Made by a program: the position numbers and the translations under genes. Positions 513 to 24,071 of a DNA stretch of 64,000 nt are shown here, piece after piece. The stretch comes from an uncultured virus (IMG/VR IMGVR_UViG_3300042154_002964). Its lineage: Duplodnaviria; Heunggongvirae; Uroviricota; Caudoviricetes. The notes below the pieces were generated by a model. The model saw only the letters and a program-made list of their open reading frames with translations, was not told the origin of the DNA and ran no database searches. Location: IMG/VR virus record IMGVR_UViG_3300042154_002964; one strand, given 5' to 3'. Within the stretch, counting starts at the first letter, position 1, and each line of letters opens with the position of its first letter.

Positions 513-584
513 TCTTCTTTTTAATATATAAATATTGATTGAATTTTAAATATAATTATGTTATACTTAATTAAAAAAAAGAAT

Positions 585-5332: not shown

Positions 5333-5720
5333 GGGGATAACTTGGAATTGACTGGCATTGTTAATTATTCGGGGCACGCAGTGAGAAGATTCCTATCACT
5401 TAAATCTATGGTATCAAATTACAAACGGCAACGTTTTAAACAAAATGGCGACTATCGGATTAATCCGTGAAGACGCTGCAGTAGCTGCCTAAGCTTAGGA
5501 AGACACTAACGGGTCGATGGACATATAACCTAGGAACAGAAGTCTTTACAAAGGTGGAAAAATGACTGAACCCGAAATCGAGTCATTCATTGGTTGTTAG
5601 TTTACGATGATGAAGAACAAACTTACTATTTTTGGAACATTAGAAAATGTTATCCTAAGCGTGTAGTCCTTAGTCTTTAAGGTGTACAACACGAGGGTTC
5701 GACTCCCTCTATCTCCACCA
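5333..5720 (+). ncRNA. ssrA: tmRNA (388 nt)
   Basis: GGGGATA/TATCTCC-ACCA acceptor stem with G3:U70; GAATTGAC 5' motif; T-arm GAGGGTTCGACTCCCTC; tag ORF 5427-5492 GNVLNKMATIGLIREDAAVAA*. Confidence 0.95.
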
Positions 5721-5726
5721 AATAAC

Positions 5727-5760
5727 AAACCCCACCTTTTTAGGATGGGGTTTTTTTATT
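5727..5760 (+). terminator. intrinsic terminator after tmRNA
   Basis: AAACCCCA...TGGGGTTT hairpin followed by a T run. Confidence 0.7.
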
Positions 5761-10888: not shown

Positions 10889-10900
10889 ACAACAAATATA

Positions 10901-11842
10901 CTAAATTCTTTTAATAATCGTACCGTCTGAATAGTGAAAAAATTTCATTCCAGGTGAATCTACCGTAACGTCTTGACCTAATGTGTTTGTTATCTTAATT
11001 AATTCGGGGGTGAATTTACGATTATCAATTGATATGATATTAAAATCTTTTGATTTACCATCATAATCGGTTTGCGTTAAATAATAATATGAAATATCAT
11101 TAAAATAACCCCTCTCTAAGTATTGGTAAAAATGCGTAAATGATGAGGTTCCGACACCATCAACTTTTGCGACTTCCACCCAATTAATTGGGTAATATGT
11201 TTTAAAAATTGTGAAGAATTGATTATTAGTTTCTGTGGCAGTCGCCCATTCAAGTAAATTACCATCCTCAGTTTGTTTACCCTTGAAGTATAATAATTCA
11301 ATAGGTAAACCTACAGGTTCAGATTCAAAGATTGATAAGTCATCTAAATATGCTGATGTTGGACCACCATAGATTGTGTTAGTCCATATTTGAAAATAAC
11401 CCGACCCTGCGTATGTGGATAATATAGTAAACGACCATTGATACCAAGTATTCCAATTTGAATTACAACTTGAGTTAGTTTGATTATCAGTTGTTAATAA
11501 TGTTGTTTGATTTGGTAACTCATTAGTGTTTACAACTACCGAACAAACACGTTTTGTGTAAAAGGTTATTGTGTAATTATAATTCGCTTTAAAAGTAATA
11601 GGAATATAAATATAAATTGAATTACCATTTGCCGCGGATGAAAATCTTGAGGAATACTTCGTCGCGTCAAAAACATTACGATAATTTCCTGTGGCACTTT
11701 CATTCCTGTTAAAGACCCAAACATTTGAAGTTGATGACCATCCTGATGGTGATACACTTGAGAAGTGTTGGTCAACAAGATAAGTCTGTCCATAAGTGAA
11801 TATAGACAGACTTAACATTAAGATATTAATTAAAGTTTTCAT
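10901..11842 (-). CDS. secreted Bacteroidota-type protein with carbohydrate-binding-like domain and T9SS-like C-terminus
   Basis: Signal peptide; LPIELLYFKG...LEWATATETNN...YYYLTQTDYDG module typical of Bacteroidota secreted proteins; C-terminal NTLGQ...YSDG. Confidence 0.65.
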   Translation of the reverse strand: MKTLINILMLSLSIFTYGQTYLVDQHFSSVSPSGWSSTSNVWVFNRNESATGNYRNVFDATKYSSRFSSAANGNSIYIYIPITFKANYNYTITFYTKRVCSVVVNTNELPNQTTLLTTDNQTNSSCNSNWNTWYQWSFTILSTYAGSGYFQIWTNTIYGGPTSAYLDDLSIFESEPVGLPIELLYFKGKQTEDGNLLEWATATETNNQFFTIFKTYYPINWVEVAKVDGVGTSSFTHFYQYLERGYFNDISYYYLTQTDYDGKSKDFNIISIDNRKFTPELIKITNTLGQDVTVDSPGMKFFHYSDGTIIKRI

Positions 11843-12873
11843 TTCTCATTTAATAAGAATTTATTAGAGATTGCTTTGAAACTGATTTTTCTGTCGTGTG
11901 AACGAATAACTAGCCCCTCTCTTTCGGTTTTAATATTTAAAACAGACTTACCTTCAGCCATTAACAATAATTCATCAATTGTTTCAGGTAATGTAAAATC
12001 TAAGTCGAGAATTGGAACCGTTTTCACTTCCAAAATTTTAGTCAATTCAAGCAAATCATCTAACGATAAATAGTCGTACTTGTCAATATCAAATCCGTTG
12101 AATATTCTAACTGTTTGACCAATACGTTGGTAAGGATTTCCTTGAATTCCTTCACCGATGATTTCACCTTGTACCGCAAGGTTTTTCTCCAATCCAACCA
12201 ACTTATCACGTAATCCTGATTCGATTGCGAATTTCCACATAGAATTGTTCACATCCTCCAATAAATCCAAGTTTCTTGAACACACTCCAAATACCCCGTC
12301 TTTAACGTAGTAAGTTACACTAGAACCATCTAATTTCTCAGTTACGTAGAATTTCGCCAATTTGTAGATAGGGTATTCTTTTGTCAAGTTTTGAACTCTT
12401 TCTTCATCAGTTTTCTTTAAAAATGAAGGAAAATTACCTTTAACTTGTCCTGCCAATTGTGCGGGAATTGGTGGTTCGTATTTCACAATGTTTAACATTT
12501 CTGTTACGTCAAGACCTTCAAACCAACCCATATCCATATTCGGTGTGTTTCTTTTGAAAACATCGTAAGCCTCTTTAAGGGGTAAGATTAACCCTTGAGA
12601 GATTTGACCTCGTAATCTGATTGTTTTCAAACGGAAACCTTCATTACCGTCCGCCATTTTTTTGTATGAACTCTTACGTAAAAATTCAAACTCAGGTTCA
12701 ATAGGTAAAAATGAGTCAACCTCACAGTAAACAATTAAGTCACCTACTTTATGATTTACATCTTTAGCAACAACAACTTTCCATCCGTCAATTGTTGCCA
12801 ATTCAATTTTGTCAGCCCCTTCGATTGGACTTAAATCAGAAATTTGTCTAATACTCGCTAATTTTCTTTCCAT
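11839..12873 (-). CDS. RNA ligase, DRB0094/Rnl5 family
   Basis: N-terminal OB domain (RKLASI...IEGADKIE...SQGL), TEKLDGSS, QGE, REGLV, SFKAISNKFL. Confidence 0.9.
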   Translation of the reverse strand: MERKLASIRQISDLSPIEGADKIELATIDGWKVVVAKDVNHKVGDLIVYCEVDSFLPIEPEFEFLRKSSYKKMADGNEGFRLKTIRLRGQISQGLILPLKEAYDVFKRNTPNMDMGWFEGLDVTEMLNIVKYEPPIPAQLAGQVKGNFPSFLKKTDEERVQNLTKEYPIYKLAKFYVTEKLDGSSVTYYVKDGVFGVCSRNLDLLEDVNNSMWKFAIESGLRDKLVGLEKNLAVQGEIIGEGIQGNPYQRIGQTVRIFNGFDIDKYDYLSLDDLLELTKILEVKTVPILDLDFTLPETIDELLLMAEGKSVLNIKTEREGLVIRSHDRKISFKAISNKFLLNEK

Positions 12874-13033
12874 TTGTTCTTGTGTTAAATAATTTTATAT
12901 ATTTTATTCTCAATGTTTTGTATTGTCTTATCATAAACTGACTTATATTGTCAGGGTTTGATGAATGTAATTCAATCATATAATTGGTTGACCTTACCTC
13001 ATCCAATAAATCGAGTAATTCATATTTTTCCAT
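12848..13033 (-). CDS. hypothetical protein
   Basis: ORF coupled by overlap to its neighbours. Confidence 0.55.
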   Translation of the reverse strand: MEKYELLDLLDEVRSTNYMIELHSSNPDNISQFMIRQYKTLRIKYIKLFNTRTNGKKISEY

Positions 13034-13382
13034 CGTCAATTCTTTTAACCATTTCCGATTGTGTGTATACTTCCTCACCCGATTCAAATTTAATCAATAA
13101 ATCTAAATTCACAACTTTATTATCCATATATTTTTCAGTGTAAGTGTAATTACAATTTGTTTGAATAACAATACCGTGGTTTTGAAATAATTTATCAATC
13201 CCTGACCGGTGTTTTAACGTGTCTTTATCAATGTTATAACTACCATCCCAAATCAAGACTCTATCACCTACATCTTTAATTCTATCGTCTTTATGTTGTT
13301 TGATATACTCTTGTATTTCTTTTAACATATTAACCGATTCTAAGAATAAATCATCTTGATTATTTTCGTCGTAAGTTTCCAT
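13020..13382 (-). CDS. hypothetical protein
   Basis: 120-aa ORF in operon. Confidence 0.7.
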   Translation of the reverse strand: METYDENNQDDLFLESVNMLKEIQEYIKQHKDDRIKDVGDRVLIWDGSYNIDKDTLKHRSGIDKLFQNHGIVIQTNCNYTYTEKYMDNKVVNLDLLIKFESGEEVYTQSEMVKRIDDGKI

Positions 13383-13387
13383 AATAA

Positions 13388-14056
13388 TTAACCAATAACA
13401 TTTAACATTTCATCAGTGTGGTGGTCCTTTTCAATCTCAGAATGAATTGGTTGTCTATCTAACAATGGAACCAACTCTCCCATAAGATTGTATGGTCTAA
13501 ACTCTAAATGACCATCAATACCAGCATCAATTCTTCTCCCTTTTCCTAATCTTCTATTGTTAGGTAAGTGACAGTGACCGTGTATGTGCATCGCACCTTT
13601 ACGTAAGTTATTCCACGAGTCAATTGGGTAGTGCATCAATTGAATTTCTCTTTTCCCAATCTTCAATGTGTTGTAGTGAGAAACACTCAAAAACAATTCT
13701 TGAACGTTGTCTTTATTATTCTCAATGTGGTGGTCGTGATTCCCCAAGATTAAGTGTATGTTTTTACATACAACTCTATCTCTGAATTTTCGGATTGACT
13801 CGAACCCACCAAAAGACCAATCACCCAAGTGAATTAAGATATCGTCTTCTTTAACGTATTGGTTAATGTTATTAACTATTGTGTCATTCATTAAATCAAG
13901 ATTACTGAAGTCACGAGTTTCTTTAATTGGAATTGAACCGTCAGGTTTTCTCCAACTTGTTGTACCACGACAAATGTTTGTGTGATTGTAGTGAGTATCT
14001 GATGTTACCCAAACATTTGGGTATTTTCCTTGTTTATTTGCGTTAATTTTAATCAT
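13388..14056 (-). CDS. calcineurin-like metallophosphoesterase
   Basis: SDTH, HLGD, GNHD, HYP, HGHCH motifs. Confidence 0.9.
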   Translation of the reverse strand: MIKINANKQGKYPNVWVTSDTHYNHTNICRGTTSWRKPDGSIPIKETRDFSNLDLMNDTIVNNINQYVKEDDILIHLGDWSFGGFESIRKFRDRVVCKNIHLILGNHDHHIENNKDNVQELFLSVSHYNTLKIGKREIQLMHYPIDSWNNLRKGAMHIHGHCHLPNNRRLGKGRRIDAGIDGHLEFRPYNLMGELVPLLDRQPIHSEIEKDHHTDEMLNVIG

Positions 14057-14573
14057 ATTGTAAATCTAGTAATTTTTCACCACTAAACCAAGATGGAACG
14101 TCTCTTTTTTTCCACGCCGCCAAATCTGATTTAGCTCCTTTATAATATTTTCGGTAAGATAATACTGCCGAGGTGATAGGATGACAATAACTTACCGTTT
14201 TAAACTCGTCTGGCATCGCCAATGGGGGACAAGTGAATTCTGTGTCAGGAATGTTTGGTCTGTTGAATAGACACCATTTAATGACCTCAACCGATTTATG
14301 AGTTTTACCATATCTAAATGTATATTCTTCACCCAACGCTAAACCTAATTCACACAAGTACAAATAGTTTGGTAATGTCTCACGAGCCCAAATCGCACAA
14401 GGGTGGTTCTTATGTGTCATCTTGTATGGGATTAGTTCTTTATCCACATTACCAGTTAAATGTTGAACTGAACACAATAGTTGTGCAGTTTCCAATATCA
14501 TTTTAACAACGTGTTTGTCTACGTGATATTGTGCATTTTTCTTAACGTCGGTATCTAAAAAGAATATGTTCAT
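14049..14573 (-). CDS. pyrimidine-dimer DNA glycosylase/endonuclease V-like protein
   Basis: MNIFFLD...DKHVVKMILETAQLL...HKNHPCAIW...YTFRYGKTH. Confidence 0.75.
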   Translation of the reverse strand: MNIFFLDTDVKKNAQYHVDKHVVKMILETAQLLCSVQHLTGNVDKELIPYKMTHKNHPCAIWARETLPNYLYLCELGLALGEEYTFRYGKTHKSVEVIKWCLFNRPNIPDTEFTCPPLAMPDEFKTVSYCHPITSAVLSYRKYYKGAKSDLAAWKKRDVPSWFSGEKLLDLQYD

Positions 14574-14574
14574 A

Positions 14575-15033
14575 TTATACAGTATGTTCAATTTGTACTC
14601 TAACACAAGTTTGTGATTGTCCTTCATTCATCAAGAAGTTGTTACAATACCCCATTATATTAGCGGACCCAATTGGGTTTGCTGAATGTACAACAATTTC
14701 AGGGAACTTAATAGGTTTTTGTTTTTTATCAAATCTTGACATATTGATTCTATTCTCATTTAATCCGTAGAATTCTGATACCAACCATTTAATTGCGTCG
14801 TAACCTGTTTTTTCTTCGATGTTATCGTAATCTAATTTATAATTTTTAGATACGTTATTGAAGTATTCTTGCATCGCACTATCACCTAAGTCGTGGTCCA
14901 ATGAAATTAATTTGATATTAGTTAAACCAACTTTGTTTACCAAATTAACAAACTCATAGAAGTTTCTTACTACTAACCAATCTTTATCGACAGGTGTTCT
15001 TACATCATCTAAATATATTTTTACTTTTTCCAT
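14575..15033 (-). CDS. cyclic-phosphate-processing receiver-domain protein
   Basis: YLDDVRTP, ISLDHDLG, TGYD, VHSANPIG motifs. Confidence 0.75.
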   Translation of the reverse strand: MEKVKIYLDDVRTPVDKDWLVVRNFYEFVNLVNKVGLTNIKLISLDHDLGDSAMQEYFNNVSKNYKLDYDNIEEKTGYDAIKWLVSEFYGLNENRINMSRFDKKQKPIKFPEIVVHSANPIGSANIMGYCNNFLMNEGQSQTCVRVQIEHTV

Positions 15034-15056
15034 AATCTTTCTTTTAACAAATATAA

Positions 15057-15404
15057 TCAATATCTATGAACGTACACTATCAATCCAAGTTTTTTTGATG
15101 TGTCTATCATATTTTTAGTCCCTTTACTCTCACCGTCCCAAAACGCAATTAACATATCACCATATTCGGCCATTTGTCTATTACGGATGTGACCGGCACC
15201 TTTACCGTGTTTATTCCAATCGGCAGGAAATACCTTTAAATCAAAACCCTTTTCTTTGGAATATTGTTCACCCAATTTATCGGTTCCTCTAGCACCACCA
15301 CTAACAATTTCAGGTGTGGTAAGTGTTGGTATAACACCGTCACATATCTCACGTAGTAATTCATAATCGTTGAATTCTCTACCACCAGCAATAATGACTT
15401 TCAT
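15057..15404 (-). CDS. YspA/DUF2493 SLOG-family protein
   Basis: IIAGGR, VSGGARGTD, ADW...AGHIRN, AFWDGESKGT. Confidence 0.85.
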   Translation of the reverse strand: MKVIIAGGREFNDYELLREICDGVIPTLTTPEIVSGGARGTDKLGEQYSKEKGFDLKVFPADWNKHGKGAGHIRNRQMAEYGDMLIAFWDGESKGTKNMIDTSKKLGLIVYVHRY

Positions 15405-15631
15405 TATCTGAAGAAATATTTTCTTGAATAATACCCAAGGGTGTTTATGTCAATATCATCATTATTAATGAACATAAATCCTTGATATTGGTCGGCGATA
15501 TGTAACGCACTTTCAATCATAGTACAAATACCAATTTTAAAATCTTTGGTTGCGATTTCATCGGTTCTTGATAATTGAAGGTTTGCGTAATCAACCATAT
15601 CTTTAACTGAAACTGTTTTTCTTTTTGCCAT
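15404..15631 (-). CDS. hypothetical protein
   Basis: 75-aa ORF at head of operon. Confidence 0.65.
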   Translation of the reverse strand: MAKRKTVSVKDMVDYANLQLSRTDEIATKDFKIGICTMIESALHIADQYQGFMFINNDDIDINTLGYYSRKYFFR

Positions 15632-15697
15632 AACATTAAGTTTTATGTTACGAAGATATATAAATTTTGGGGAAAAACATACGGAATAGAAAAAAAA

Positions 15698-15806
15698 GTT
15701 ATTAATACAGGATTCGAACCTGTGAGTCCCCGTGTATAGGTATCATACATACCACATTCCCGGACTTTATGTATGCTCAACCTTAAGCCACTCGGTCAAT
15801 TAATTA
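15698..15806 (-). ncRNA. tRNA-like element with aberrant enlarged anticodon arm
   Basis: D-arm CCGAGTGGCTTAAGG and T-arm ACAGGTTCGAATCCTGT intact; anticodon arm replaced by CATACATA-16 nt-TATGTATG. Confidence 0.55.
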
Positions 15807-15807
15807 A

Positions 15808-16018
15808 CCACCCCTGAGATTACGGGGTGTAGATGTCCTCAGTTTTTCTTATACAAAACCCAACGCGTCTTACCGCTTAAAAATCAACCATTACGTCGGA
15901 GTGAGGATGGTGTTCCACACTATTAGCCCAACGACCCCCTTTACAAATCCTAATGAGGTATCAGATATATCATTGTTTAAGTAACGATACCAAATCTAGT
16001 GAGTTTCTCGAACTCATT
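15808..16018 (-). ncRNA. candidate structured ncRNA sharing a 3' motif with the GOLLD-like RNA
   Basis: ORF-free; ACTGAGG...CCCCG-TAATCTCA-GGGG end. Confidence 0.4.
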
Positions 16019-16019
16019 G

Positions 16020-16094
16020 TGGAGACAGTGGGAATCGAACCCACCACACGGTGATTGCAAATCATCATCGCCACGCCTTGGAACATTTGCCCCC
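16020..16094 (-). tRNA. tRNA-Ala(UGC)
   Basis: Acceptor GGGGGCA/TGTCTCC with G3:U70; A73; loop TTTGCAA. Confidence 0.8.
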
Positions 16095-16100
16095 AAATTT

Positions 16101-16200
16101 AGACAACAGGTAATACTCACATTTATTATTACCTAACTCAACGACCTCTGCAGTTGTGAATCTGTTTTAAAGGTTTTCCTCGGTGAAGAGTTTGTTGTCT
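16101..16200 (-). ncRNA. candidate multi-stem small RNA
   Basis: Closed by AGACAAC/GTTGTCT; internal AGGTAATA/TATTACCT and AACTC/GAGTT helices. Confidence 0.4.
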
Positions 16201-16206
16201 ATTTTT

Positions 16207-16365
16207 TTATTTGAAAGACTTTGATTGGTCCTCCCTATTTAATTCTTTCTCAATGTAGATATTGACCATATGTATTAGTGTGTCAGAATCAATATCAATT
16301 GTTTGACTTTCCTTACTTTCTTTCAGAAACGGAAAGATATTTTTAAAATACTCCTCGAATTTCAT
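16207..16365 (-). CDS. small hypothetical protein (52 aa)
   Basis: Manual translation MKFEEYFKNIFPFLKE...SFK*. Confidence 0.55.
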   Translation of the reverse strand: MKFEEYFKNIFPFLKESKESQTIDIDSDTLIHMVNIYIEKELNREDQSKSFK

Positions 16366-16369
16366 TTTA

Positions 16370-16702
16370 TTATAACTTTATAAATGTTTCATTTTTGATT
16401 GATTTACTAATCCATCTTGCTAATTCAGAACCTCTTATTTCCGAATTGAAAGAAGTTGTCCCAAGGTCTTCAGATAATGTTGTGACCACATCTGACTCCT
16501 TAACTTTCGCACCAACTTCTAATGTTGATACATTATGTGTGACCTTTACATCAACTGTTGAAATTGGAAACTCGTACATATCACCAAAAACCTCAATCTT
16601 GTAATACAAATTACCTGCAATATAGTGACTAAATTTAGCCATTGCTTTAGACTTCATTAAGTCTTTTTTAATTTCAGTTTCGTTTAACTCAATTGTAACC
16701 AT
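16370..16702 (-). CDS. hypothetical protein
   Basis: ORF within tRNA region. Confidence 0.7.
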   Translation of the reverse strand: MVTIELNETEIKKDLMKSKAMAKFSHYIAGNLYYKIEVFGDMYEFPISTVDVKVTHNVSTLEVGAKVKESDVVTTLSEDLGTTSFNSEIRGSELARWISKSIKNETFIKL

Positions 16703-17009
16703 TTTCCAATTTCCATTTATTATGTAATTCATTTATTGTGTGATAAGGACTACCTACACCTTCATAAATCTCATCAAAACCATTTTCTTTAGTAATAACA
16801 GATTCTTCAGCTTTAATTGCCCCCCTATATTTATCCCCGTAACTTCCTTGAACTGTTTTTGTTGCCGGGTCAATATCACCCCAAGATGCTCTCCAACTTC
16901 TTGGTTCAATATATTCTACGAAATATTGTTTACCTGTTTCAGGAAATACAACAATTTCTTTTCCTGTTTCGTCTCGATTTACTAAGAAATCTCTTTTTAC
17001 ATCTTCCAT
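16689..17009 (-). CDS. hypothetical protein
   Basis: 106 aa; WGDIDPATK...YGDKYRGAI. Confidence 0.75.
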   Translation of the reverse strand: MEDVKRDFLVNRDETGKEIVVFPETGKQYFVEYIEPRSWRASWGDIDPATKTVQGSYGDKYRGAIKAEESVITKENGFDEIYEGVGSPYHTINELHNKWKLENGYN

Positions 17010-17038
17010 AACTGACTGTTATACTGTTTATTTTATTG

Positions 17039-17111
17039 AGCGGGTGGGGGGAATCGAACCCTCGTCCTTAGATTGGAAGTCTAATATAATAAGCCACTAT
17101 ACGACACCCGC
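17039..17111 (-). tRNA. tRNA-Gly(UCC)
   Basis: TTAGA-CTTCCAA-TCTAA; GCGGGTG acceptor; U73. Confidence 0.92.
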
Positions 17112-17197
17112 AATTTGGGTAGAATCAGACGCGTTCTGTCTACCGAGACCTCGACGTTGTACTATGTTTCAAGTCAGAGCGTACCGAGACACTATTG

Positions 17198-17277
17198 TGA
17201 ACCTGGAGGGAGTCGAACCCTCAATCCTAAAAATCGCGGCTTAAACACGACGCGTATACCAATTTCGCCACAGGTCC
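17198..17277 (-). tRNA. tRNA-Leu(UAA)
   Basis: TCGTG-TTTAAGC-CGCGA; Leu-type D arm. Confidence 0.85.
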
Positions 17278-17283
17278 TTTTTG

Positions 17284-17356
17284 TACCCCTACAGGGATTC
17301 TAACCCCGATTAAACCCTTAGAAGGGGTTGGTCCTATACAGTTGAACGATAGGGGC
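17284..17356 (-). tRNA. tRNA-Arg(UCU), non-canonical T- and D-loops
   Basis: AACCC-CTTCTAA-GGGTT; T-loop TTAGAAT; D-loop lacks GG. Confidence 0.7.
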
Positions 17357-17365
17357 GAATTATTG

Positions 17366-17437
17366 CGGACTATGTAGGATTCGAACCTACGACCTATCCG
17401 TTAACAGCGGAGTGCTCTACCACTGAGCTAATAGTCC
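17366..17437 (-). tRNA. tRNA-Asn(GUU)
   Basis: Loop CTGTTAA; canonical D and T arms. Confidence 0.92.
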
Positions 17438-17449
17438 ATTTAATTGTTG

Positions 17450-17522
17450 AGGTCCCTAACGGATTCGAACCGTTATCCCTGGGTTACAAAGCCAGAATAA
17501 TAAGCCATTATACTAAGAGACC
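17450..17522 (-). tRNA. tRNA-Thr(UGU)
   Basis: CTGGC-TTTGTAA-CCCAG. Confidence 0.85.
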
Positions 17523-17664
17523 AATTAAGAGTGTTATTAATTCGTTTTACCTAAGACCGCGAATCCACGTAAAACTCAACTTCACCAATATTTTTACTGC
17601 AGTTCCAATATTGTCACATTGCTACTATATTGAACTAATAACTACGAATTACCCATCATAATTT

Positions 17665-17740
17665 CACCATCGTTAGGGCTCGAACCTAAAGCTTCCGACT
17701 CCACGTCAGATGTGTTGACCAATTTACACCACTAGTTACT
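17665..17740 (-). pseudogene. tRNA-like element (Pro UGG-like, G33, broken acceptor stem)
   Basis: D arm, TCTGA-CGTGGAG-TCGGA and TTAGGTTCGAGCCCTAA present; acceptor strands do not pair. Confidence 0.55.
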
Positions 17741-17769
17741 TAGATTGACAAATAATTGTTTTTCTCTTT

Positions 17770-17845
17770 GCTGAATAATAAGGGTTCGAACCTTAATCTG
17801 AAATCCGTATTACCATCATCCGTGCTCCATTACACTATATCCAAT
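17770..17845 (-). pseudogene. tRNA-like element with unpaired anticodon stem
   Basis: TAGTGTAATGGAGCAC D arm and TAAGGTTCGAACCCTTA T arm. Confidence 0.5.
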
Positions 17846-17893
17846 CGACAGTTTCGAACCTGTCATATAAAGGGTTATAACTCCTTTATTTTG

Positions 17894-17965
17894 CGGTCTA
17901 TGCGAGAATCGAACTCGCGGCACATCCGTGACAGGGATGTATGTTAGCCACTACACCAATAGACC
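17894..17965 (-). tRNA. tRNA-Asp(GUC)
   Basis: CATCC-CTGTCAC-GGATG; G73. Confidence 0.92.
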
Positions 17966-17971
17966 ATAATA

Positions 17972-18154
17972 AAAACAAGTTTTTCGTGACCTTTACACAT
18001 CATAACCAATTTTACTCGGTGATTACATTTTCGTCATTGGGGTAGCTAATCCCCGACTTATAGTAATTCTACCCTCAATACTTTACTATCGCGAATCAAG
18101 TACCATCTTGGGATTTATAGACAGTGAGGGTTTACTCACCGTCTTCACTTGTTT
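17972..18154 (-). ncRNA. candidate structured RNA (~180 nt)
   Basis: Closed by AAACAAGT/ACTTGTTT; internal AGACGGTGAG/CTCACTGTCT and GGGG/CCCC hairpins. Confidence 0.4.
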
Positions 18155-18156
18155 AG

Positions 18157-18228
18157 TAGCGGGTACAGGATTCGAACCTGTGTCTTTGGGTTATGAGCCC
18201 AACGGGGTGACCACTCCCCCAACCCGCG
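18157..18228 (-). tRNA. initiator tRNA-fMet(CAU)
   Basis: GGG-CTCATAA-CCC anticodon stem; C1:U72 mismatch. Confidence 0.9.
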
Positions 18229-18233
18229 ATATG

Positions 18234-18310
18234 AATTACCCATAGGACTCGAACCTACAACCCTTCGCCCTTTTGAGCGATGTGCAAACCAATTTACACC
18301 ATAAGTAATT
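18234..18310 (-). pseudogene. tRNA-like element with non-canonical anticodon loop
   Basis: D and T arms intact; TCGCT-CAAAAG-GGCGA 6-nt loop without U33. Confidence 0.55.
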
Positions 18311-18405
18311 AATCAAGAACAATAAACAGAAATTAGTGTCGACAAATTTCCTTAGGCAATATGTTTATTTTCTTGTTAGGGTTCGGTTAATTACTCCGAC
18401 CTTTG

Positions 18406-18479
18406 TATCGCGTACGGGATTCGAACCCGTGATTTTCACCTTGAAAGGGTGACGACTTAAACCTCTCGTCTAACGCGAC
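18406..18479 (-). tRNA. tRNA-Glu(UUC)
   Basis: TCACC-CTTTCAA-GGTGA. Confidence 0.9.
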
Positions 18480-18491
18480 ATTTTGTTTTTT

Positions 18492-18570
18492 CTATTCCGA
18501 TATGTCAAAGACCTTTTGTTTTCTTTTGTCTTACAAATCTAATCATTTTCTTTTGTTCTCACAAGCTCTT
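18492..18570 (-). promoter_or_regulatory. promoter (TAGATTTG) plus boxA-like cassette
   Basis: TAGATTTGTAAGACAAAA...GTCTTTGACATATCGG; near-duplicate of 18832-18905. Confidence 0.65.
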
Positions 18571-18589
18571 TGTGATATTTTTTTTTCTG

Positions 18590-18663
18590 TAGTTCAGAAG
18601 GGATTTGAACCCCCAACCTTGACGATATAAGCGTCCTGCTCTCACCTGTTGAGCTACTGAACC
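18590..18663 (-). tRNA. tRNA-Ile(UAU)
   Basis: GGACG-CTTATAT-CGTCA; A73. Confidence 0.85.
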
Positions 18664-18667
18664 AAAT

Positions 18668-18747
18668 ACGTTTCACGTTTTAGGCCAATTAAACTAACCG
18701 CCCGTCGTCACGGACAGTACCGGAGTCGAACCGATATGTGATAACGA
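18668..18747 (-). ncRNA. circularly permuted tRNA mimic (YrlA/Y-RNA-like topology)
   Basis: 5'->3' order: T arm ATCGGTTCGACTCCGGT, acceptor-like stem closed by a GACG loop, D arm GTTTAATTGGCCTAAAAC; termini pair (CGTTATCAC/GTGAAACG). Confidence 0.65.
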
Positions 18748-18749
18748 AG

Positions 18750-18823
18750 TACCCTTGGTGGGATTCGAACCCACAAAAAAATAGTTTCTAAAACTATCGT
18801 GTATACCTTTCCACCACAAGGGT
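18750..18823 (-). tRNA. tRNA-Leu(UAG), short variable region
   Basis: ATAGT-TTTAGAA-ACTAT. Confidence 0.8.
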
Positions 18824-18831
18824 ATCTACTT

Positions 18832-18905
18832 CTATTCCAATATGTCAATGAACTCTTGTTCTGTTTTGTCTTACAAATCTAATACTTTTATTTTGATTTG
18901 CCAAA
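18832..18905 (-). promoter_or_regulatory. promoter (TAGATTTG) plus boxA-like cassette
   Basis: TTTG...TAGATTTGTAAGACAAAA...GTTCATTGACATATTGG. Confidence 0.65.
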
Positions 18906-18915
18906 CTTAGGTCAC

Positions 18916-18947
18916 AAAAAAAACCCCTCTCTTTTGGAGAAGGGTTT
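18916..18947 (-). terminator. putative attenuator terminator 1
   Basis: AAACCCTTCTC-CAAAA-GAGAGGGGTTT followed by a U tract. Confidence 0.8.
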
Positions 18948-18970
18948 CATTTAAATTTTATCTTAATGAA

Positions 18971-19048
18971 TTAACACATCTTCTCCGATACACAAGGATT
19001 GTCTCCCTCCGTTCTCGCATTTAAAAGTATGTTATTCAAATTTTGCAT
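18971..19048 (-). CDS. putative leader peptide 1 (25 aa) of the tRNA sub-array 16020-18823
   Basis: MQNLNNILLNARTEGDNPCVSEKMC*; contains GGAGAAG complementary to the terminator 5' arm. Confidence 0.75.
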   Translation of the reverse strand: MQNLNNILLNARTEGDNPCVSEKMC

Positions 19049-19133
19049 TGTGTTGTCTTTTTTATTAAATATATTGTACTTTTTGAAAAGTTCAATAGTT
19101 AGTGAAAAATTTTTAACAAATTGGTTTAGATTT

Positions 19134-19532
19134 TTAATTTTCAAGTACTTCTTTAACAATTTTTGAAACTAAAGTATTGTCGGCTTTACCCTTATATACT
19201 TTATTGAAAGCACCCATCATTTTACCAACATTATCAATACCATCTTTTTTAAATGTTCTGATGATTGAACGGATACTAAATTCATCCATTAACTTTGGTA
19301 AATATGGTTTAATGTATTCTAATTCTTTTAAAGATTCATCAGTGTTTGTCTGTGTTAATGATTTTTCCATTTTCTTTAAAATAGAAAGAACTACCTCATC
19401 TGTCACACTAACACCTCTACCTTCTTCATTTTGGATTTCACCTTTTAGTACACCTAAAAAGTTTTTCTTTTCCATTTCTTTGTTTTTAAATGCCGTCATA
19501 AATTCGACATTAATTTGTTCTCTTAGTGACAT
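19134..19532 (-). CDS. GatB/YqeY-domain protein
   Basis: MSLREQI...AFKNK...LKGEIQNEE...YLPK...GKMMG...KGKAD...VSKIVK. Confidence 0.85.
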   Translation of the reverse strand: MSLREQINVEFMTAFKNKEMEKKNFLGVLKGEIQNEEGRGVSVTDEVVLSILKKMEKSLTQTNTDESLKELEYIKPYLPKLMDEFSIRSIIRTFKKDGIDNVGKMMGAFNKVYKGKADNTLVSKIVKEVLEN

Positions 19533-19549
19533 AGTTATTTGTTTTTAAG

Positions 19550-19630
19550 TGGGTGCGGAGGGATTCGAACCCCCACGCGATTAAGACCTGAGCTACAATC
19601 AGGCGAGCCAGCCAATTGCTCAACACACCC
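19550..19630 (-). tRNA. tRNA-Tyr(GUA), atypical
   Basis: CCTGA-TTGTAGC-TCAGG; long variable region. Confidence 0.75.
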
Positions 19631-19705
19631 ATAAAGAAAATATCGTAGATTGTCCTTCACAATTTAACGGCGGGTTTGAACTTAATCAACTCTCCTACGA
19701 TATCT

Positions 19706-19791
<86 letters not shown>

Positions 19792-19817
19792 ATTATATGA
19801 CAATTAATGTCATTTCG

Positions 19818-19889
19818 CGCACCACCAAGGACTCGAACCCTGACCAAATGGGTTGGAACCATTTATGCTAGCCATTACACCAATGATGC
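19818..19889 (-). tRNA. tRNA-Trp(CCA)
   Basis: AATGG-TTCCAAC-CCATT; G73. Confidence 0.85.
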
Positions 19890-19916
19890 GAATAATGAAA
19901 TTTTTATATTTCATTG

Positions 19917-19990
19917 AGGACAGAGAGAGGTTCGAACTCCCGAATAATGGGTTTGCAGCCCACCCCTTTAGACCACTCAGGCATCTGTCC
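19917..19990 (-). tRNA. tRNA-Cys(GCA)
   Basis: GTGGG-CTGCAAA-CCCAT; U73. Confidence 0.92.
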
Positions 19991-20186
19991 AATTTAATAT
20001 TAAGTCGCGAGTAATCCATCTGTCGCTTATTACTAGAATCTTGTGGCTTACTTACTATAGTTCATACCGTTACCACTAGGAAACCCAACTTAATATCTTC
20101 GTACTAATTATTTTAGAGATTGGTTCCCGAAGGATTAAACCATCACTTGTACTTCGTGTCAGGAGGTAAACCCCATATCTCTAATG

Positions 20187-20258
20187 TAGCCCCTGTAGGA
20201 CTCGAACCTACACTATCTTGTATGTAAAACAAGTACTTCACCTTTAAGCTAAAGGGCT
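20187..20258 (-). tRNA. tRNA-Val(UAC)
   Basis: CTTGT-TTTACAT-ACAAG. Confidence 0.9.
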
Positions 20259-20266
20259 AATTATTG

Positions 20267-20341
20267 TGACCCCGGTGAGAATCGAACTCACGACCCGTAC
20301 ATTAAAAGTGTACTGCTCTAAACCAACTGAGCTACGAAGTC
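20267..20341 (-). tRNA. tRNA-Lys(UUU)
   Basis: GTACA-CTTTTAA-TGTAC. Confidence 0.92.
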
Positions 20342-20464
20342 AAATTTGGAAGGTCACCACAAACACCTTCCACGGTGAGTATTTTAATGTCGTTTTGTCT
20401 AATTACACCTAAGTGTCATAGTCGCAGGTCTCACTTCACGACAAACCCGATTGGTATTAAGTAG

Positions 20465-20538
20465 TCGGTACGGTAGGATTTGAACCTACGACCTTTCACG
20501 TATCAGGCGAATGCTCTTACCAGCTGAGCTACGTACCG
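20465..20538 (-). tRNA. tRNA-Ile(GAU)
   Basis: TTCGC-CTGATAC-GTGAA. Confidence 0.9.
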
Positions 20539-20545
20539 TTATTTT

Positions 20546-20620
20546 TGGTCGGGGTAGCAGGTGTCGAACCTGCCGCCTCTTGGTCCCAAACCAAGCGTCT
20601 CACCCCAAGACTATACCCCG
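20546..20620 (-). tRNA. tRNA-Pro(UGG) with encoded CCA
   Basis: CTTGG-TTTGGGA-CCAAG; CGGGGTA acceptor. Confidence 0.9.
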
Positions 20621-20686
20621 TTTGTTTGTTTAACAAAGATAAGTAATCATTTTCATTCTCACAATACCTTAGTTAATTTTTTTTTG

Positions 20687-20758
20687 TATCGTTATCAGGA
20701 CTCGAACCTGAACCCACACCTTATGAGAGTGTTGTGACTACCTTTACACTATAACGAC
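20687..20758 (-). tRNA. tRNA-Met(CAU) elongator (or Ile2)
   Basis: ACACT-CTCATAA-GGTGT. Confidence 0.8.
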
Positions 20759-20763
20759 GTTTG

Positions 20764-20851
20764 CGGAAGATGTAGGGTTCGAACCTACGCGTCATATTTC
20801 AGACCTACTTGTTTAGCAAACAAGCCTCTTTACCAATTTGAGTAATCTTCC
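20764..20851 (-). tRNA. tRNA-Ser(GCU)
   Basis: CTTGT-TTGCTAA-ACAAG; long variable arm; G73. Confidence 0.9.
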
Positions 20852-20891
20852 AAAATACACCGACCTAGCTCGGTATCACACATCGGATACG

Positions 20892-20963
20892 TAGTCCCCC
20901 AAGGACTCGAACCTTGACATTATCGTCCGTAGCGATAGGTGCTATCCGTTACACCAAGGAACC
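20892..20963 (-). tRNA. tRNA-Arg(ACG)
   Basis: TATCG-CTACGGA-CGATA. Confidence 0.9.
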
Positions 20964-20966
20964 AAA

Positions 20967-21077
20967 TAATAAGGTTGGAGACTTATAATCGACCATTATA
21001 AGGTTGGAGCCTTATAATCACCCATTATTAGGTCTGAACCTAATATTCACCCATTATTAGGTTATAACCTTATATTG
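20967..21077. repeat. four degenerate 29-nt tandem hairpin repeats
   Basis: Units start at 20967, 20996, 21025 and 21054; consensus TTATwAGG-6 nt-CCTwATAwTCACCCA. Confidence 0.8.
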
Positions 21078-21254
21078 AGTTTTTCTGTAGTGTTTCCAAG
21101 TTTTATACATTCTAACTTGATAACTCATTTTGTTTCCGTAGAAACTTATTCCTTCATCCCAATAAATTGGGTAAAAGTCATTAATCAATCTATTTCGGTA
21201 TTCTCTACCATTTTGTGCTTTGTTCAGTTTTGCTCTGTTGATGTTTGTACTCAT
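21057..21254 (-). CDS. small basic hypothetical protein
   Basis: MSTNINRAKLNKA...KTWKHYRKTQYK. Confidence 0.65.
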   Translation of the reverse strand: MSTNINRAKLNKAQNGREYRNRLINDFYPIYWDEGISFYGNKMSYQVRMYKTWKHYRKTQYKVIT

Positions 21255-21510
21255 AGTTGTGGTTTTTAACCTACAACTTGTCAAATTTTTTCTTCATTTT
21301 GTTTAATGTAATCTAATGCAATGTGTATCAAACCGTTGAGATATTGCCATTTCGGACTTGCGTTCGGATAATGACCGAATATCTCAACTAATTTTTCTTC
21401 TTGCCATTTCCTTTCACTAATGATTGGAGATAACCATCGACCATTTTCTAAGTCGGCATTTACAAATGTTTTTTCTGTCTCTGCGATTTCTAAGTTTTAA
21501 AAATTAATTG

Positions 21511-21585
21511 GGAGTATAGTGAGATTCGAACTCACCCTATTAGCACCACAAACTAACGTGCTCGACCACTGACACTATATACTCC
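21511..21585 (-). tRNA. tRNA-His(GUG)
   Basis: TTAGT-TTGTGGT-GCTAA; G-1:C73 pair. Confidence 0.9.
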
Positions 21586-21663
21586 ATAAAAACCCCACTT
21601 CATCGGATTAATGGACCGACTGCCATATCGGGAGTGGGGGTTTTCCCATCAGTAGGGACTCCG

Positions 21664-21736
21664 TGGGACAGGAGGGAATCGAACCCCCATTGCTTGTTCT
21701 TCAGACAAGTGCCTTGACCAACTTGGCAACTGACCC
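21664..21736 (-). tRNA. tRNA-Phe(GAA)
   Basis: CTTGT-CTGAAGA-ACAAG. Confidence 0.88.
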
Positions 21737-21842
21737 AAATATTTTCATCAAATCACCGATTACCACAATTACGGTGAGACCTTCGGGAACTGCCGTCCCG
21801 TGTTTTCTTTTTACCCGTGGATTAAACTATTTGATGGGGTAG

Positions 21843-21917
21843 TTGTCCCGGCAGGAATCGAACCTGCGATATCCACATTCAAAGTGTGGTGGCTCTGCCA
21901 ACGTCGCCTACAGGACA
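21843..21917 (-). tRNA. tRNA-Gln(UUG)
   Basis: CCACA-CTTTGAA-TGTGG; U1:A72. Confidence 0.85.
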
Positions 21918-21924
21918 ATAATGG

Positions 21925-22050
21925 TTACTTACGTAACCTTTTGATTAATTTTCTCAACAACCTAAATTTTATTTTAACCTCTTTAGGTTGTTGTCTTAAC
22001 ATTACTCTACTTGACTCAAATGTTCCCGTCAATACTTCTCTTTTTTTCAT
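21925..22050 (-). CDS. small basic hypothetical protein (41 aa)
   Basis: Manual translation MKKREVLTGTFESSRVMLRQQPKEVKIKFRLLRKLIKRLRK*. Confidence 0.5.
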   Translation of the reverse strand: MKKREVLTGTFESSRVMLRQQPKEVKIKFRLLRKLIKRLRK

Positions 22051-22065
22051 TTTACTTTTATTTTG

Positions 22066-22148
22066 CGGAAGACGAGGGAATCGAACCCCCAAAGCTTTTA
22101 CACCCAGCCGCTTTCAAGGCGGTGTCCTCGTCCATTCGGGCGCCTTCC
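22066..22148 (-). tRNA. tRNA-Ser(UGA)
   Basis: ACCGC-CTTGAAA-GCGGC; long variable arm; G73. Confidence 0.85.
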
Positions 22149-22163
22149 GTATTATTATCTAAA

Positions 22164-22225
22164 CCAATATGTCAATGAACTTTTCTGTTGTCAAAGATAC
22201 AAATTTCATTTTGTAACTTCCAAAT
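22164..22225 (-). promoter_or_regulatory. promoter (TATCTTTG) plus boxA-like cassette
   Basis: TTTG...TATCTTTGACAACAG...GTTCATTGACATATTGG. Confidence 0.65.
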
Positions 22226-22233
22226 TTTATTTC

Positions 22234-22267
22234 AAAAAAAAACCCCCGAACTTTTGGTTCAGGGGTC
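22234..22267 (-). terminator. putative attenuator terminator 2
   Basis: GACCCCTGAAC-CAAAA-GTTCGGGGGTT followed by a U tract. Confidence 0.8.
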
Positions 22268-22292
22268 TTACTAAATTAATATACGTTTATAT

Positions 22293-22412
22293 TTAACTTA
22301 ATATGTTTTCTGAACCATATGACGTGCTAAACCACATCGGATACGATACGCTACACACGCGAATCTGTTTCGATGGACTTACTTGTTTAATATGTTGTTC
22401 AGTTGTTCTCAT
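22293..22412 (-). CDS. putative leader peptide 2 (39 aa) of the tRNA sub-array 19550-22148
   Basis: Manual translation MRTTEQHIKQVSPSKQIRVCSVSYPMWFSTSYGSENILS*; contains GGTTCAG complementary to the terminator 5' arm. Confidence 0.75.
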   Translation of the reverse strand: MRTTEQHIKQVSPSKQIRVCSVSYPMWFSTSYGSENILS

Positions 22413-22477
22413 TTTTATTATTCTTTTAATATATATCAACAAATTTAGTAAAAGTTCTTTGGTTGTCAAGTTTTTTT

Positions 22478-23050
22478 TTAATTTTTTCTACATTTTTCAC
22501 AAAATGTGATTGTGTTCACATCATTACTTCTGTTTTCAGACATAACACAATTTGAGTTATCACAATGACTCAAACCTAAATTGTGTCCTATCTCGTGAAT
22601 TATGACACGTTTTAATTCATTTGGTCGGTTCTTACCAACAATTATGATATTACCATAAAGTTCACCTAATCCACCAATCGTATTTTTATCTTCTACTGAA
22701 TAACACCCATCATCAGTTAATAAAATTTTATTTTGGTTATTGTCAAAATCCTCTAAAGATTTCTCACAATCAATTAACCCATTGATGTAATAATCAGAAC
22801 TCAATTGAATTGGGTCAATTATTTTAGTTGGAACACCATAAGTCTCTTCAACAATTTGTTTAGCGTGACGTAAAGTACTATTTGAATAATTACCAAGACC
22901 TTGAATATAGATTGTATCACCATCTGTCATTTTTTTCAAATCAATTGAATTTGTGATAAATGTTGGTAATGGGATTTTACCTGATTTAACTTTAGAAGTT
23001 AAAGTAACCATAACCAAAACTATAACACCAAATTTTATTATCTCTTTCAT
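22478..23050 (-). CDS. archaemetzincin (M54)-like zinc metalloprotease, membrane-anchored or secreted
   Basis: HEIGHNLGLSHC...CVM...FCEKC; N-terminal hydrophobic segment. Confidence 0.8.
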   Translation of the reverse strand: MKEIIKFGVIVLVMVTLTSKVKSGKIPLPTFITNSIDLKKMTDGDTIYIQGLGNYSNSTLRHAKQIVEETYGVPTKIIDPIQLSSDYYINGLIDCEKSLEDFDNNQNKILLTDDGCYSVEDKNTIGGLGELYGNIIIVGKNRPNELKRVIIHEIGHNLGLSHCDNSNCVMSENRSNDVNTITFCEKCRKN

Positions 23051-23104
23051 ATCCGTTTCTTTTTATCAAAGATATAAAAAATACTTAATAATCAAGCAAG
23101 GTTA

Positions 23105-23287
23105 TCAATTATTTTTCCATTCTTTCCAATACTCAAAATCTTTCAAGTCTTCTAAAAATTGTTTCTCAACTAACACATAGTTACTTGATTGTTCCATTTC
23201 TGATAACATTTTGAAAAATTCTTGACCATCAATTGATTCTGCGAATTGTCGATGTTCTTCTTCTAATATTTCGTGAAAACTCCCCAT
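23105..23287 (-). CDS. hypothetical protein
   Basis: 60 aa; C-terminal LKDFEYWKEWKN. Confidence 0.6.
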   Translation of the reverse strand: MGSFHEILEEEHRQFAESIDGQEFFKMLSEMEQSSNYVLVEKQFLEDLKDFEYWKEWKNN

Positions 23288-23288
23288 A

Positions 23289-23471
23289 TTAGATTTTTTT
23301 AACTTCGTATTCGTGACCTGAATCTGAATTGGTTTCGAAGATTGTCTTCATTTCAGTTGCTTTATCTAAGTCTTCGAACTCCCAAACTTCGTGGTCACTA
23401 TTTAATAAGATTACTGGTATTGAAACACCATTTCTTTTCTTCACTTTTTTGATAATAACATACATTCCCAT
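23289..23471 (-). CDS. hypothetical protein
   Basis: PVILLN...EVWEF...FETNSDSGHEYEVKKI. Confidence 0.65.
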   Translation of the reverse strand: MGMYVIIKKVKKRNGVSIPVILLNSDHEVWEFEDLDKATEMKTIFETNSDSGHEYEVKKI

Positions 23472-23579
23472 AACATTTAATTTTTTTGTAAAGATATAAA
23501 CTATTTCGAGTAAATCAAACATTTTAAAATTTTGACTATTAATCTTTTTAGATATATACTTAATAACAAAATAAATAAA

Positions 23580-24071
23580 ATGGATAAGGTATTAGTATTA
23601 AACTCTGATTATACCCCAATTAACGTAACAAGTACAATACGTGGGTATAATTTAGTTATTAAAGGTAAAGCTGAGATATTGAAGACGGGGGAAAAACCTA
23701 TAGTAACCGGAAACATACCTGTGCTTAGACCTTTGATTATCAGACTATTGAGTTACGTTAAATTTAGAGTTCGTAATCTTAAAATTAACAGACATAGAAT
23801 TTTTAAAAGGGATAATTACGAATGTGCTTATTGTGGTAGTGGGAAACATCTTACTATTGACCATATTATTCCCAAATCAAGAGGTGGGGGTAATACTTGG
23901 ACTAACTTGGTTACTTGTTGTCGAAATTGTAATAGAACTAAAGATGACAAAACACCTGATGAAGCGGGAATGAAATTAAAATACAAACCATTTGAACCTT
24001 CAATCTTTTCTAATGTAATTAATCCAACAATTGAAGATATTTGGATTGATTTTCAAAAGACATTTAGTTAA
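23580..24071 (+). CDS. HNH endonuclease (McrA-like)
   Basis: VLVLNSDY, RDNYECAYCG, TIDHIIPKSRGG, NLVTCCRNCN. Confidence 0.92.
   Translation: MDKVLVLNSDYTPINVTSTIRGYNLVIKGKAEILKTGEKPIVTGNIPVLRPLIIRLLSYVKFRVRNLKINRHRIFKRDNYECAYCGSGKHLTIDHIIPKSRGGGNTWTNLVTCCRNCNRTKDDKTPDEAGMKLKYKPFEPSIFSNVINPTIEDIWIDFQKTFS

Follow-up and report, generated by a model that had tools for sequence, protein, structure and literature searches.

Why phages carry arrays of transfer RNA (tRNA) genes, and how such arrays are controlled, is an old open question, and to our knowledge no regulation of phage tRNA genes has been described. Here we address it through a 64-kb piece of an uncultured phage contig (IMGVR_UViG_3300042154_002964, hereafter the window; L001 and L027 are this same contig), in which two blocks of tRNA genes on the minus strand each stand behind a short open reading frame (ORF) and an intrinsic terminator. 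We put forward as the likely reading that each block is preceded by a codon-matched, ribosome-mediated transcription attenuator, so that production of a tRNA set would probably rise whenever ribosomes lack the tRNAs in it. Attenuation had been proposed for this locus in an original prediction made from the letters of the window, and comparative evidence now supports it in the form of a match between leader codons and downstream tRNAs and of co-variation between antiterminator and terminator strands across families of related leaders. Near-identical DNA is present in 14 lake-water or other aquatic metagenome runs; the phage is a freshwater one.

Both modules share the same order on the minus strand: a promoter (P1), a short ATG-initiated ORF, a terminator, a second promoter (P2), a 17-nt motif and the tRNAs. 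Their components are as follows.

22440..22469, minus strand: P1 of module 2, Bacteroidota -33/-7 type, with TTG at 22469-22467, a 19-nt spacer and TAAATTTG at 22447-22440, read from sequence; a sigma-70 scan also marks TTGACA at 22469
22293..22412, minus strand: leader ORF 2, 39 codons plus TAA, MRTTEQHIKQVSPSKQIRVCSVSYPMWFSTSYGSENILS, from the ORF list and the sequence
22234..22269 (scan: 22269-22239), minus strand: terminator 2, 13-bp stem, loop CAAAA and U tract, a strong call of the terminator scan
22192..22224, minus strand: P2 of module 2, with TTTG at 22224-22221, a 21-nt spacer and TATCTTTG at 22199-22192, read from sequence
22164..22180, minus strand: boxA-like motif GTTCATTGACATATTGG of module 2, 15 nt before tRNA-Ser
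19549..22148, minus strand: tRNA block 2, with Ser-UGA, Gln, Phe, His, Arg-ACG, Ser-GCU, Met, Pro, Ile-GAU, Lys, Val, Cys, Trp, Tyr and Tyr (ARAGORN, Rfam)
19066..19095, minus strand: P1 of module 1, with TTG at 19095-19093, a 19-nt spacer and TATATTTA at 19073-19066, read from sequence; its final base deviates from TAnnTTTG, and the sigma-70 scan has a match at 19095
18971..19048, minus strand: leader ORF 1, 25 codons plus TAA, MQNLNNILLNARTEGDNPCVSEKMC, from the ORF list and the sequence
18916..18948 (scan: 18948-18920), minus strand: terminator 1, 12-bp stem, loop CAAAA and U tract, a strong call of the terminator scan
18874..18905, minus strand: P2 of module 1, with TTTG at 18905-18902, a 20-nt spacer and TAGATTTG at 18881-18874, read from sequence
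18837..18853, minus strand: boxA-like motif GTTCATTGACATATTGG of module 1, 13 nt before tRNA-Leu(UAG)
17038..18823, minus strand: tRNA block 1, with Leu-UAG, Ile-UAU, Glu, Met, Asp, Thr-UGU, Asn, Arg-UCU, Leu-UAA and Gly-UCC (ARAGORN, Rfam)
18497..18513, minus strand: third, degenerate boxA-like copy GGTCTTTGACATATCGG, inside block 1 before tRNA-Glu, with 3 mismatches
16017..16094, minus strand: tRNA-Ala(UGC)-like gene with a G3:U70 pair, 3' of block 1 and past three small ORFs

The original prediction counted 26 tRNAs in two minus-strand blocks that overlap only in CAU, each block behind a short ORF and a terminator with the same CAAAA loop, and this description holds, with 24 firm and two weaker tRNA calls. 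Between 17038 and 21917, the same 24 minus-strand tRNAs are called by ARAGORN and by Rfam. The 25th, Ser-UGA (22148-22067), is found by ARAGORN at 95% thresholds and scores 32.6 bits with the tRNA-Sec model, below the Rfam threshold, and the 26th, the Ala(UGC)-like gene (16094-16017), emerges in relaxed ARAGORN searches and with the tmRNA model (25.3 bits). Block 2 thus holds 15 tRNAs of 14 anticodon species, with small ORFs interspersed between some of them, and block 1 holds 10 tRNAs; CAU is the sole anticodon common to both. As a side observation, the match of the Ala(UGC)-like gene is to the tRNA-like ends of the tmRNA model, and the region 15698-16094 (minus strand) contains a second tRNA-like 3' end, with a T arm at about 15720, called by neither ARAGORN nor Rfam.

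The codon composition of the two leaders follows the tRNAs behind them. Under strict wobble rules block 2 reads 28 of the 38 post-ATG codons of leader 2, with all 14 of its anticodon species covered, and block 1 reads 16 of the 24 post-ATG codons of leader 1, with 10 of 11 species covered; the uncovered species is Leu-UAG, though CTT is present, and the Ala(UGC)-like gene would decode the GCG codon of this leader. A cross-table of own against other block for the two leaders (27:8 versus 6:15) gives a Fisher p of 6e-4, bearing out the claim that leader codons mirror the downstream block. As a control, 50,000 same-length windows were drawn from the 71 long ORFs of the window itself: four attain the coverage of leader 2 and none its matched fraction, and for leader 1 the coverage is attained by 647, the fraction by 516 and both by two.

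An A-rich untranslated stretch precedes each leader ATG; across modules, A makes up 59% and G 6% of the 15 nt ahead of this codon. Initiation in Bacteroidota can do without a Shine-Dalgarno sequence. The leader peptides matched no Pfam or PHROGs family. Both leaders are kept almost unchanged in L028, a relative whose neighbouring metalloprotease has 62% protein identity to that of the window: leader 2 differs by two synonymous and two non-synonymous changes, and leader 1, also conserved in L075, by two non-synonymous changes.

To place these modules in a comparative setting, IMG/VR was scanned with the 17-nt motif, which returned at least 117 stretches with 112 distinct sites listed, those of the window included. 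The motif stands 10-15 nt before a tRNA in many of the listed stretches, and a terminator lies within about 200 nt upstream in 53 of the 112 distinct sites; in 50 of these 53, an ATG-initiated ORF has its stop 15-45 nt before the terminator. Among the 42 listed modules with enough upstream sequence, 41 carry an ORF so placed with 20 codons or more, as against 3.3 +/- 1.6 in shuffles and 0 of 42 when the anchor is shifted by 60 nt, and the distance from stop to terminator is 18-38 nt (median 25.5). BLAST searches with the region and with both modules against cultured phages returned no phage carrying the module, only tRNA pieces or chance matches.

For codon tests on these relatives, the leader was defined as the longest ATG ORF ending 15-45 nt before the terminator, picked blind to its codons, and the array as all tRNAs on the same strand as far as the next terminator or 3.5 kb; 38 modules with at least 700 nt downstream were grouped into 26 leader families, each with one representative. 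The permutation of leader codons against array content, foreseen in the original prediction, was positive: the fraction of codons read by the own array is 0.581, compared to 0.422 +/- 0.018 for arrays permuted among families (own value reached in none of 200,000 permutations), and the excess is similar with relaxed wobble and at the amino-acid level. Leaders also exceed long ORFs of the same locus (0.399), in 25 of the 26 families (Wilcoxon 6e-8), and the match resides in the leader frame, the other two frames yielding 0.362 (+1) and 0.327 (+2; Wilcoxon 1.2e-5). Given that an amino acid is served by the array, the codon used for it is readable in 0.869 of cases in leaders versus 0.792 (Fisher 4e-6). 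Two further contigs with two modules reproduce the own-versus-other pattern of the window (L028, p 1.4e-3; L061, p 0.012).

An attenuator also calls for a switch in the RNA, and the following segments of the window modules are the candidates.

22397..22402, minus strand: region 1 of leader 2, CTGAAC, codons 4-6, paired with region 2 in the full-length minimum free energy (MFE) fold
22310..22317, minus strand: region 2 of leader 2, the putative antiterminator strand TGGTTCAG, (T)GGTTCAG, 15-22 nt 5' of the stop
22262-22255, minus strand: region 3 of terminator 2, CTGAACCA, CTGAACC(A), in the terminator 5' arm
19024..19038, minus strand: region 1 of leader 1, codons 4-9, paired with region 2 in the full-length MFE fold
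18980..18986, minus strand: region 2 of leader 1, the putative antiterminator strand GGAGAAG, 7-13 nt 5' of the stop
18942-18936, minus strand: region 3 of terminator 1, CTTCTCC, complementary to GGAGAAG

The 7-nt complementarity to the terminator 5' arm on which the original prediction had built is present at both sites and is individually significant only in leader 2, where the duplex of regions 2 and 3 (2:3) has -10.4 kcal/mol (z -2.43, p 0.023 against dinucleotide shuffles). Folds ending at the 5' arm form 2:3 around a small hairpin, with -17.8 kcal/mol in module 2 and -12.2 kcal/mol in module 1; the terminators themselves (3:4) have -18.8 and -16.4 kcal/mol, respectively. Full-length folds of both window leaders contain 1:2 and 3:4 (z -4.3 and -4.8).

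Across families, region 2 falls within the final ten codons or overlaps the stop (-29 to +12 nt relative to it), and the 2:3 duplex has a mean z of -2.71 against dinucleotide shuffles, with p<0.05 in 17 of the 26 families. The antiterminator prediction gains support from the co-variation of this pairing with the terminator arm: region 2 pairs with its own arm at -12.81 kcal/mol, compared to -8.20 +/- 0.46 kcal/mol for arms permuted among families (none of 100,000 permutations), and restricting the arm to its top 9 nt leaves the result intact. In 19 of 26 families region 2 pairs with a region 1 in codons 2-11 in the MFE fold computed without the terminator, as scored against mononucleotide shuffles; adding region 1 would give a three-helix topology (1:2, 2:3 and 3:4) like that of trp. 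The codon match itself varies with position: it stays at baseline (0.37-0.45) over the last six codons and is highest, 0.67-0.76, in codons 8-16. Such avoidance of the leader's end is what masking of region 2 by a ribosome close to the stop would predict, an earlier stall instead masking region 1 and freeing region 2.

Folds well below shuffles in both window leaders, together with a leader 2 that is near-identical in nucleotides between the window and L028 next to a protease only 62% identical, might also be read as signs of an untranslated structured RNA, be it a small RNA or a protein-binding leader, in which the open frame is incidental. We give this account hardly any credence, given the ATG ORF in 41 of 42 listed modules where 3.3 are expected, a codon match that is specific to the frame (0.58 versus 0.36 and 0.33) and the lack of any matching Rfam family.

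The 17-nt motif between terminator and tRNAs was traced in host genomes, scanning one genome per species. At least 122 sites are listed, almost exclusively in Bacteroidota among the matches listed, and 20 loci were tested for ribosomal RNA operon (rrn) context: in 17 of these 20 Bacteroidota loci the identical 17-mer sits within the 16S-23S spacer in the same orientation, after tRNA-Ile and tRNA-Ala and 60-200 nt before the 23S gene. We take this spacer element to be boxA, on the assumption that its location corresponds to that of the rrn spacer boxA of E. coli, and judged by identity of sequence the phage motif is the Bacteroidota rrn spacer boxA. In its position behind the attenuator, it would protect the long untranslated transcript of the array. 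Only two of the 122 listed host sites precede a tRNA, and one of these (L160, a 2.7-kb contig of a metagenome-assembled genome) carries the complete module and probably represents phage DNA; the 122 listed sites give no sign of hosts using the module. As separate observations, the same boxA follows a conserved GC-rich structured element, located in the 100 nt before the motif and with no tRNA following, in L029, L042, L047, L052 and L113, where it may head a different non-coding RNA operon, and the 17-mer occurs in a divergent intergenic region of the cultured Cellulophaga phages phi46:3 (L268 2501-2521) and phi13:2. Four Cellulophaga phage matches were considered as modules and rejected, since their boxA heads a protein-coding operon with no tRNA nearby.

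From these elements we infer the following course of events. Transcription would start at P1, a promoter of the host (Bacteroidota) type with its -33/-7 consensus, and the leader ORF would be translated without a Shine-Dalgarno sequence, its central part offering a mixture of codons that the downstream tRNAs decode. A ribosome that reaches the stop would cover region 2 and the small hairpin behind it, allowing the 3:4 terminator to form and transcription to end. If the ribosome is instead slowed at a sampled codon, its tRNA being scarce, uncharged or damaged, region 1 would be held or unwound and region 2 left free to pair with the terminator 5' arm, and RNA polymerase would read on. If there is no translation, 1:2 and 3:4 would form and lead to termination. 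Following read-through, the transcribed boxA would probably recruit Nus factors that enable polymerase to cross the long untranslated array, and the new tRNAs would relieve the stall, closing a negative feedback on tRNA supply.

Several findings weigh against attenuation and have to be set beside this evidence. The 2:3 pairing of leader 1 taken alone is not significant against dinucleotide shuffles (z -1.21, p 0.116), the mononucleotide shuffles already mentioned are the only ones against which region 1 was scored, and an exact TAnnTTTG lies 8-70 nt 5' of the ATG in only 20 of the 50 listed leaders. Sensitivity to any single tRNA may be low, each being sampled by one to few codons where classical attenuators use runs. 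A canonical promoter (TTTG-N20/21-TAnnTTTG) stands between terminator and boxA in both window modules, where the original prediction had placed TAnnTTTG promoters as a caveat (P2, at 22199-22192 and 18881-18874), so that the window arrays need not depend on read-through. In the window, P2 would then give a basal level to which the attenuator adds, rather than the attenuator being the sole gate.

The same promoters could be taken to mean that ORF and terminator form a separate small transcription unit, or an insulator against read-through, and that the tRNAs are expressed only from promoters after the terminator. TAnnTTTG occurs between terminator and boxA in 15 of the 50 listed modules, both window modules included. 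One RNA-library contig (22234-22408) runs from the ATG of leader 2 and ends at the U tract of terminator 2, which equally fits attenuation; another, from a 92%-identical relative, spans 18731-19070, comprising leader 1 and its terminator and running into tRNA-Leu, and in four runs no RNA-library contig was found upstream of 22444. Such contigs cannot show starts, ends or levels, DNA is possibly present in the libraries, and we counted neither contig as evidence. In 12 of the 50 listed modules, no more than 25 nt separate the terminator stem from the start of boxA, which leaves no room for a promoter and makes the tRNAs reachable only via read-through. An insulator also leaves unexplained the in-frame codon match, the co-variation of region 2 with the terminator arm and the fixed spacing from stop to terminator, and a separate small unit sits poorly with peptides that belong to no known family and that show four non-synonymous to two synonymous changes between the window and L028. 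We therefore hold this explanation to be very unlikely.

Two further findings bear on what is being sensed. Within families, gain or loss of tRNAs is not mirrored in leader codons (105 cases in the expected direction, 103 against and 34 equal), in a test of co-variation that the 3.5-kb cut of the array blurs, and the largest family, in which long leaders precede Ser-UGA arrays with an almost complete tRNA set, shows practically no excess over baseline (0.78 versus 0.78; 0.48 versus 0.51). Both would be natural if the leader were a translation-coupled attenuator reporting the general speed of decoding or the supply of amino acids, its diverse content making it a broad sensor; leaders are indeed unusually diverse, with 15.9 distinct amino acids compared to 14.2 in same-length ORF windows, and sample each species only once or twice. 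A general sensor does not account for two leaders of one genome that each match the block behind them and not that of the other leader, the two blocks being disjoint, for own arrays that beat those of others in all 200,000 permutations, or for a match that reaches into the choice of synonymous codons; nor would extra tRNA cure amino-acid starvation. On balance we deem a general sensor unlikely, and retain codon-matched attenuation directed at the downstream tRNA set as the preferred reading.

The proposed modules resemble the attenuators of amino-acid operons (trpL, hisL, leuL, thrL, ilvL, pheL and that of pheST, pheM), which likewise have a promoter-proximal short ORF followed by a terminator before the regulated genes, the 2:3 and 3:4 pairings (to which 1:2 is here a candidate addition) with a logic in which stalling leads to read-through, and regulatory codons cognate to what the regulated genes supply. 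They differ in that the regulated genes are tRNAs and not enzymes or synthetases, in that the leader holds a mixed sample for 5-15 tRNA species and not a run for one amino acid, and in their setting of Bacteroidota-type phage genomes, with no Shine-Dalgarno sequence and with a boxA following. New with respect to the classical attenuators are thus the tRNA targets, the mixed codon sample, the phage location and the coupling to boxA. None of the curated Rfam leader models (Trp, His, Leu, Thr), nor the T-box model, matched positions 14000-24000 in E-value mode, and over the terminators Rfam returned only weak, chance-level matches to Rev39_5p_UTR. T-box riboswitches likewise are cis-acting leaders that choose between terminator and antiterminator and report the state of a specific tRNA, but they bind the uncharged tRNA directly, without a ribosome, and control synthetase and amino-acid genes in Firmicutes; here, by the frame-specific signal, the ORF is required. 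The third system of comparison is antitermination through boxA, with NusB and NusE, in rrn operons and at the lambda nut boxA. As in the Bacteroidota 16S-23S spacers, which carry the identical 17-mer, boxA in the phage lies 3' of a promoter and 5' of long untranslated RNA genes; it differs in heading phage tRNA arrays behind an attenuator, with Nus binding putative.

Searches of the full-text literature, largely outside subscription journals, turned up no account of leader-peptide attenuation acting on tRNA genes, nor of a boxA heading phage tRNA arrays. An E. coli tRNA-Phe gene might have an attenuator. A passage on a 'tRNA operon' in PMC3082878 was considered and is unrelated to attenuation of tRNA genes. 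Should attenuation hold, these would be the first tRNA genes known to be under such control, and the leader would act as a natural sensor that monitors decoding capacity through several channels. Modules of this kind are widespread among Bacteroidota phages, and their design, a mixed-codon leader with lock-in through boxA, could serve as a synthetic sensor of tRNA supply.

What might deplete the tRNAs is hinted at by the genes downstream of the tRNA blocks.

9833-10888, minus strand: T4 Rnl1-like RNA ligase, downstream of the tRNA blocks
11839-12873, minus strand: RNA ligase with a PHA02142 OB domain
13388-14056, minus strand: metallophosphoesterase
14575-15060, minus strand: cREC_REC cyclic-phosphate-processing receiver-domain protein
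15057-15404, minus strand: YspA/SLOG protein

The RNA-repair-type cluster at 9833-15404 (minus strand) is of the sort associated with mending cut tRNAs, as by T4 Rnl1 with PNK against PrrC, and it is suggestive of a role for anticodon nucleases, with which it would fit. Phage-encoded tRNAs take the place of host tRNAs cleaved by defence nucleases such as PrrC, PARIS, retron effectors and Schlafen (PMC10264068, PMC11464382, PMC11555353), and in the setting of these papers a phage tRNA set likewise lies beside RNA ligases and repair genes. Their abstracts describe no sensing or regulation of phage tRNA genes, and the link to defence drawn here is putative. Tentatively, and with more doubt than confidence, we extend the attenuation model to a scheme in which the modules are damage sensors: the leader would detect the loss of any host tRNA in its set, for instance to an anticodon nuclease, and switch on the replacements, boxA would lock polymerase in a termination-resistant state, the ligases would carry out repair, and the separate blocks would act as separate channels for each class of attack.

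Several features of the window and its relatives stand apart from the argument. A YqeY-like ORF lies between the two tRNA blocks (19134-19532, minus strand), and homologues with 48-78% identity (L002-L023) are found in many large phage contigs (200-370 kb), often next to a tRNA array. YqeY synteny was tried as a route of comparison and abandoned, as the 22 relatives keep the gene and not leader 1 behind it. In four of these relatives (L006, L008, L009 and L020, at about 5480-5750) a long, GC-richer structured stretch lies 3' of YqeY and ends in a tRNA-like T arm and acceptor; that of L006 is called a 93-nt tRNA-Cys by ARAGORN and may be an intron-containing tRNA or a tRNA-like RNA. Between tRNA-Ser and tRNA-Gln, a very basic ORF of 41 codons (21928-22050, minus strand), followed by a perfect hairpin (21938-21923), is kept in L028 (6020-6136) at the protein and not the nucleotide level. 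The window also encodes a ClpB-like double AAA+ ATPase (558-2639, plus strand) and a GAF-PAS-PAS histidine-kinase-like protein (40855-42993, minus strand), which are unusual phage cargo. Finally, the relatives L024-L026, L035 and L098 have tRNAs with anticodon CUA (called Pyl) or UUA (called Stop), possible suppressors that hint at recoding of stop codons in some of these phages.

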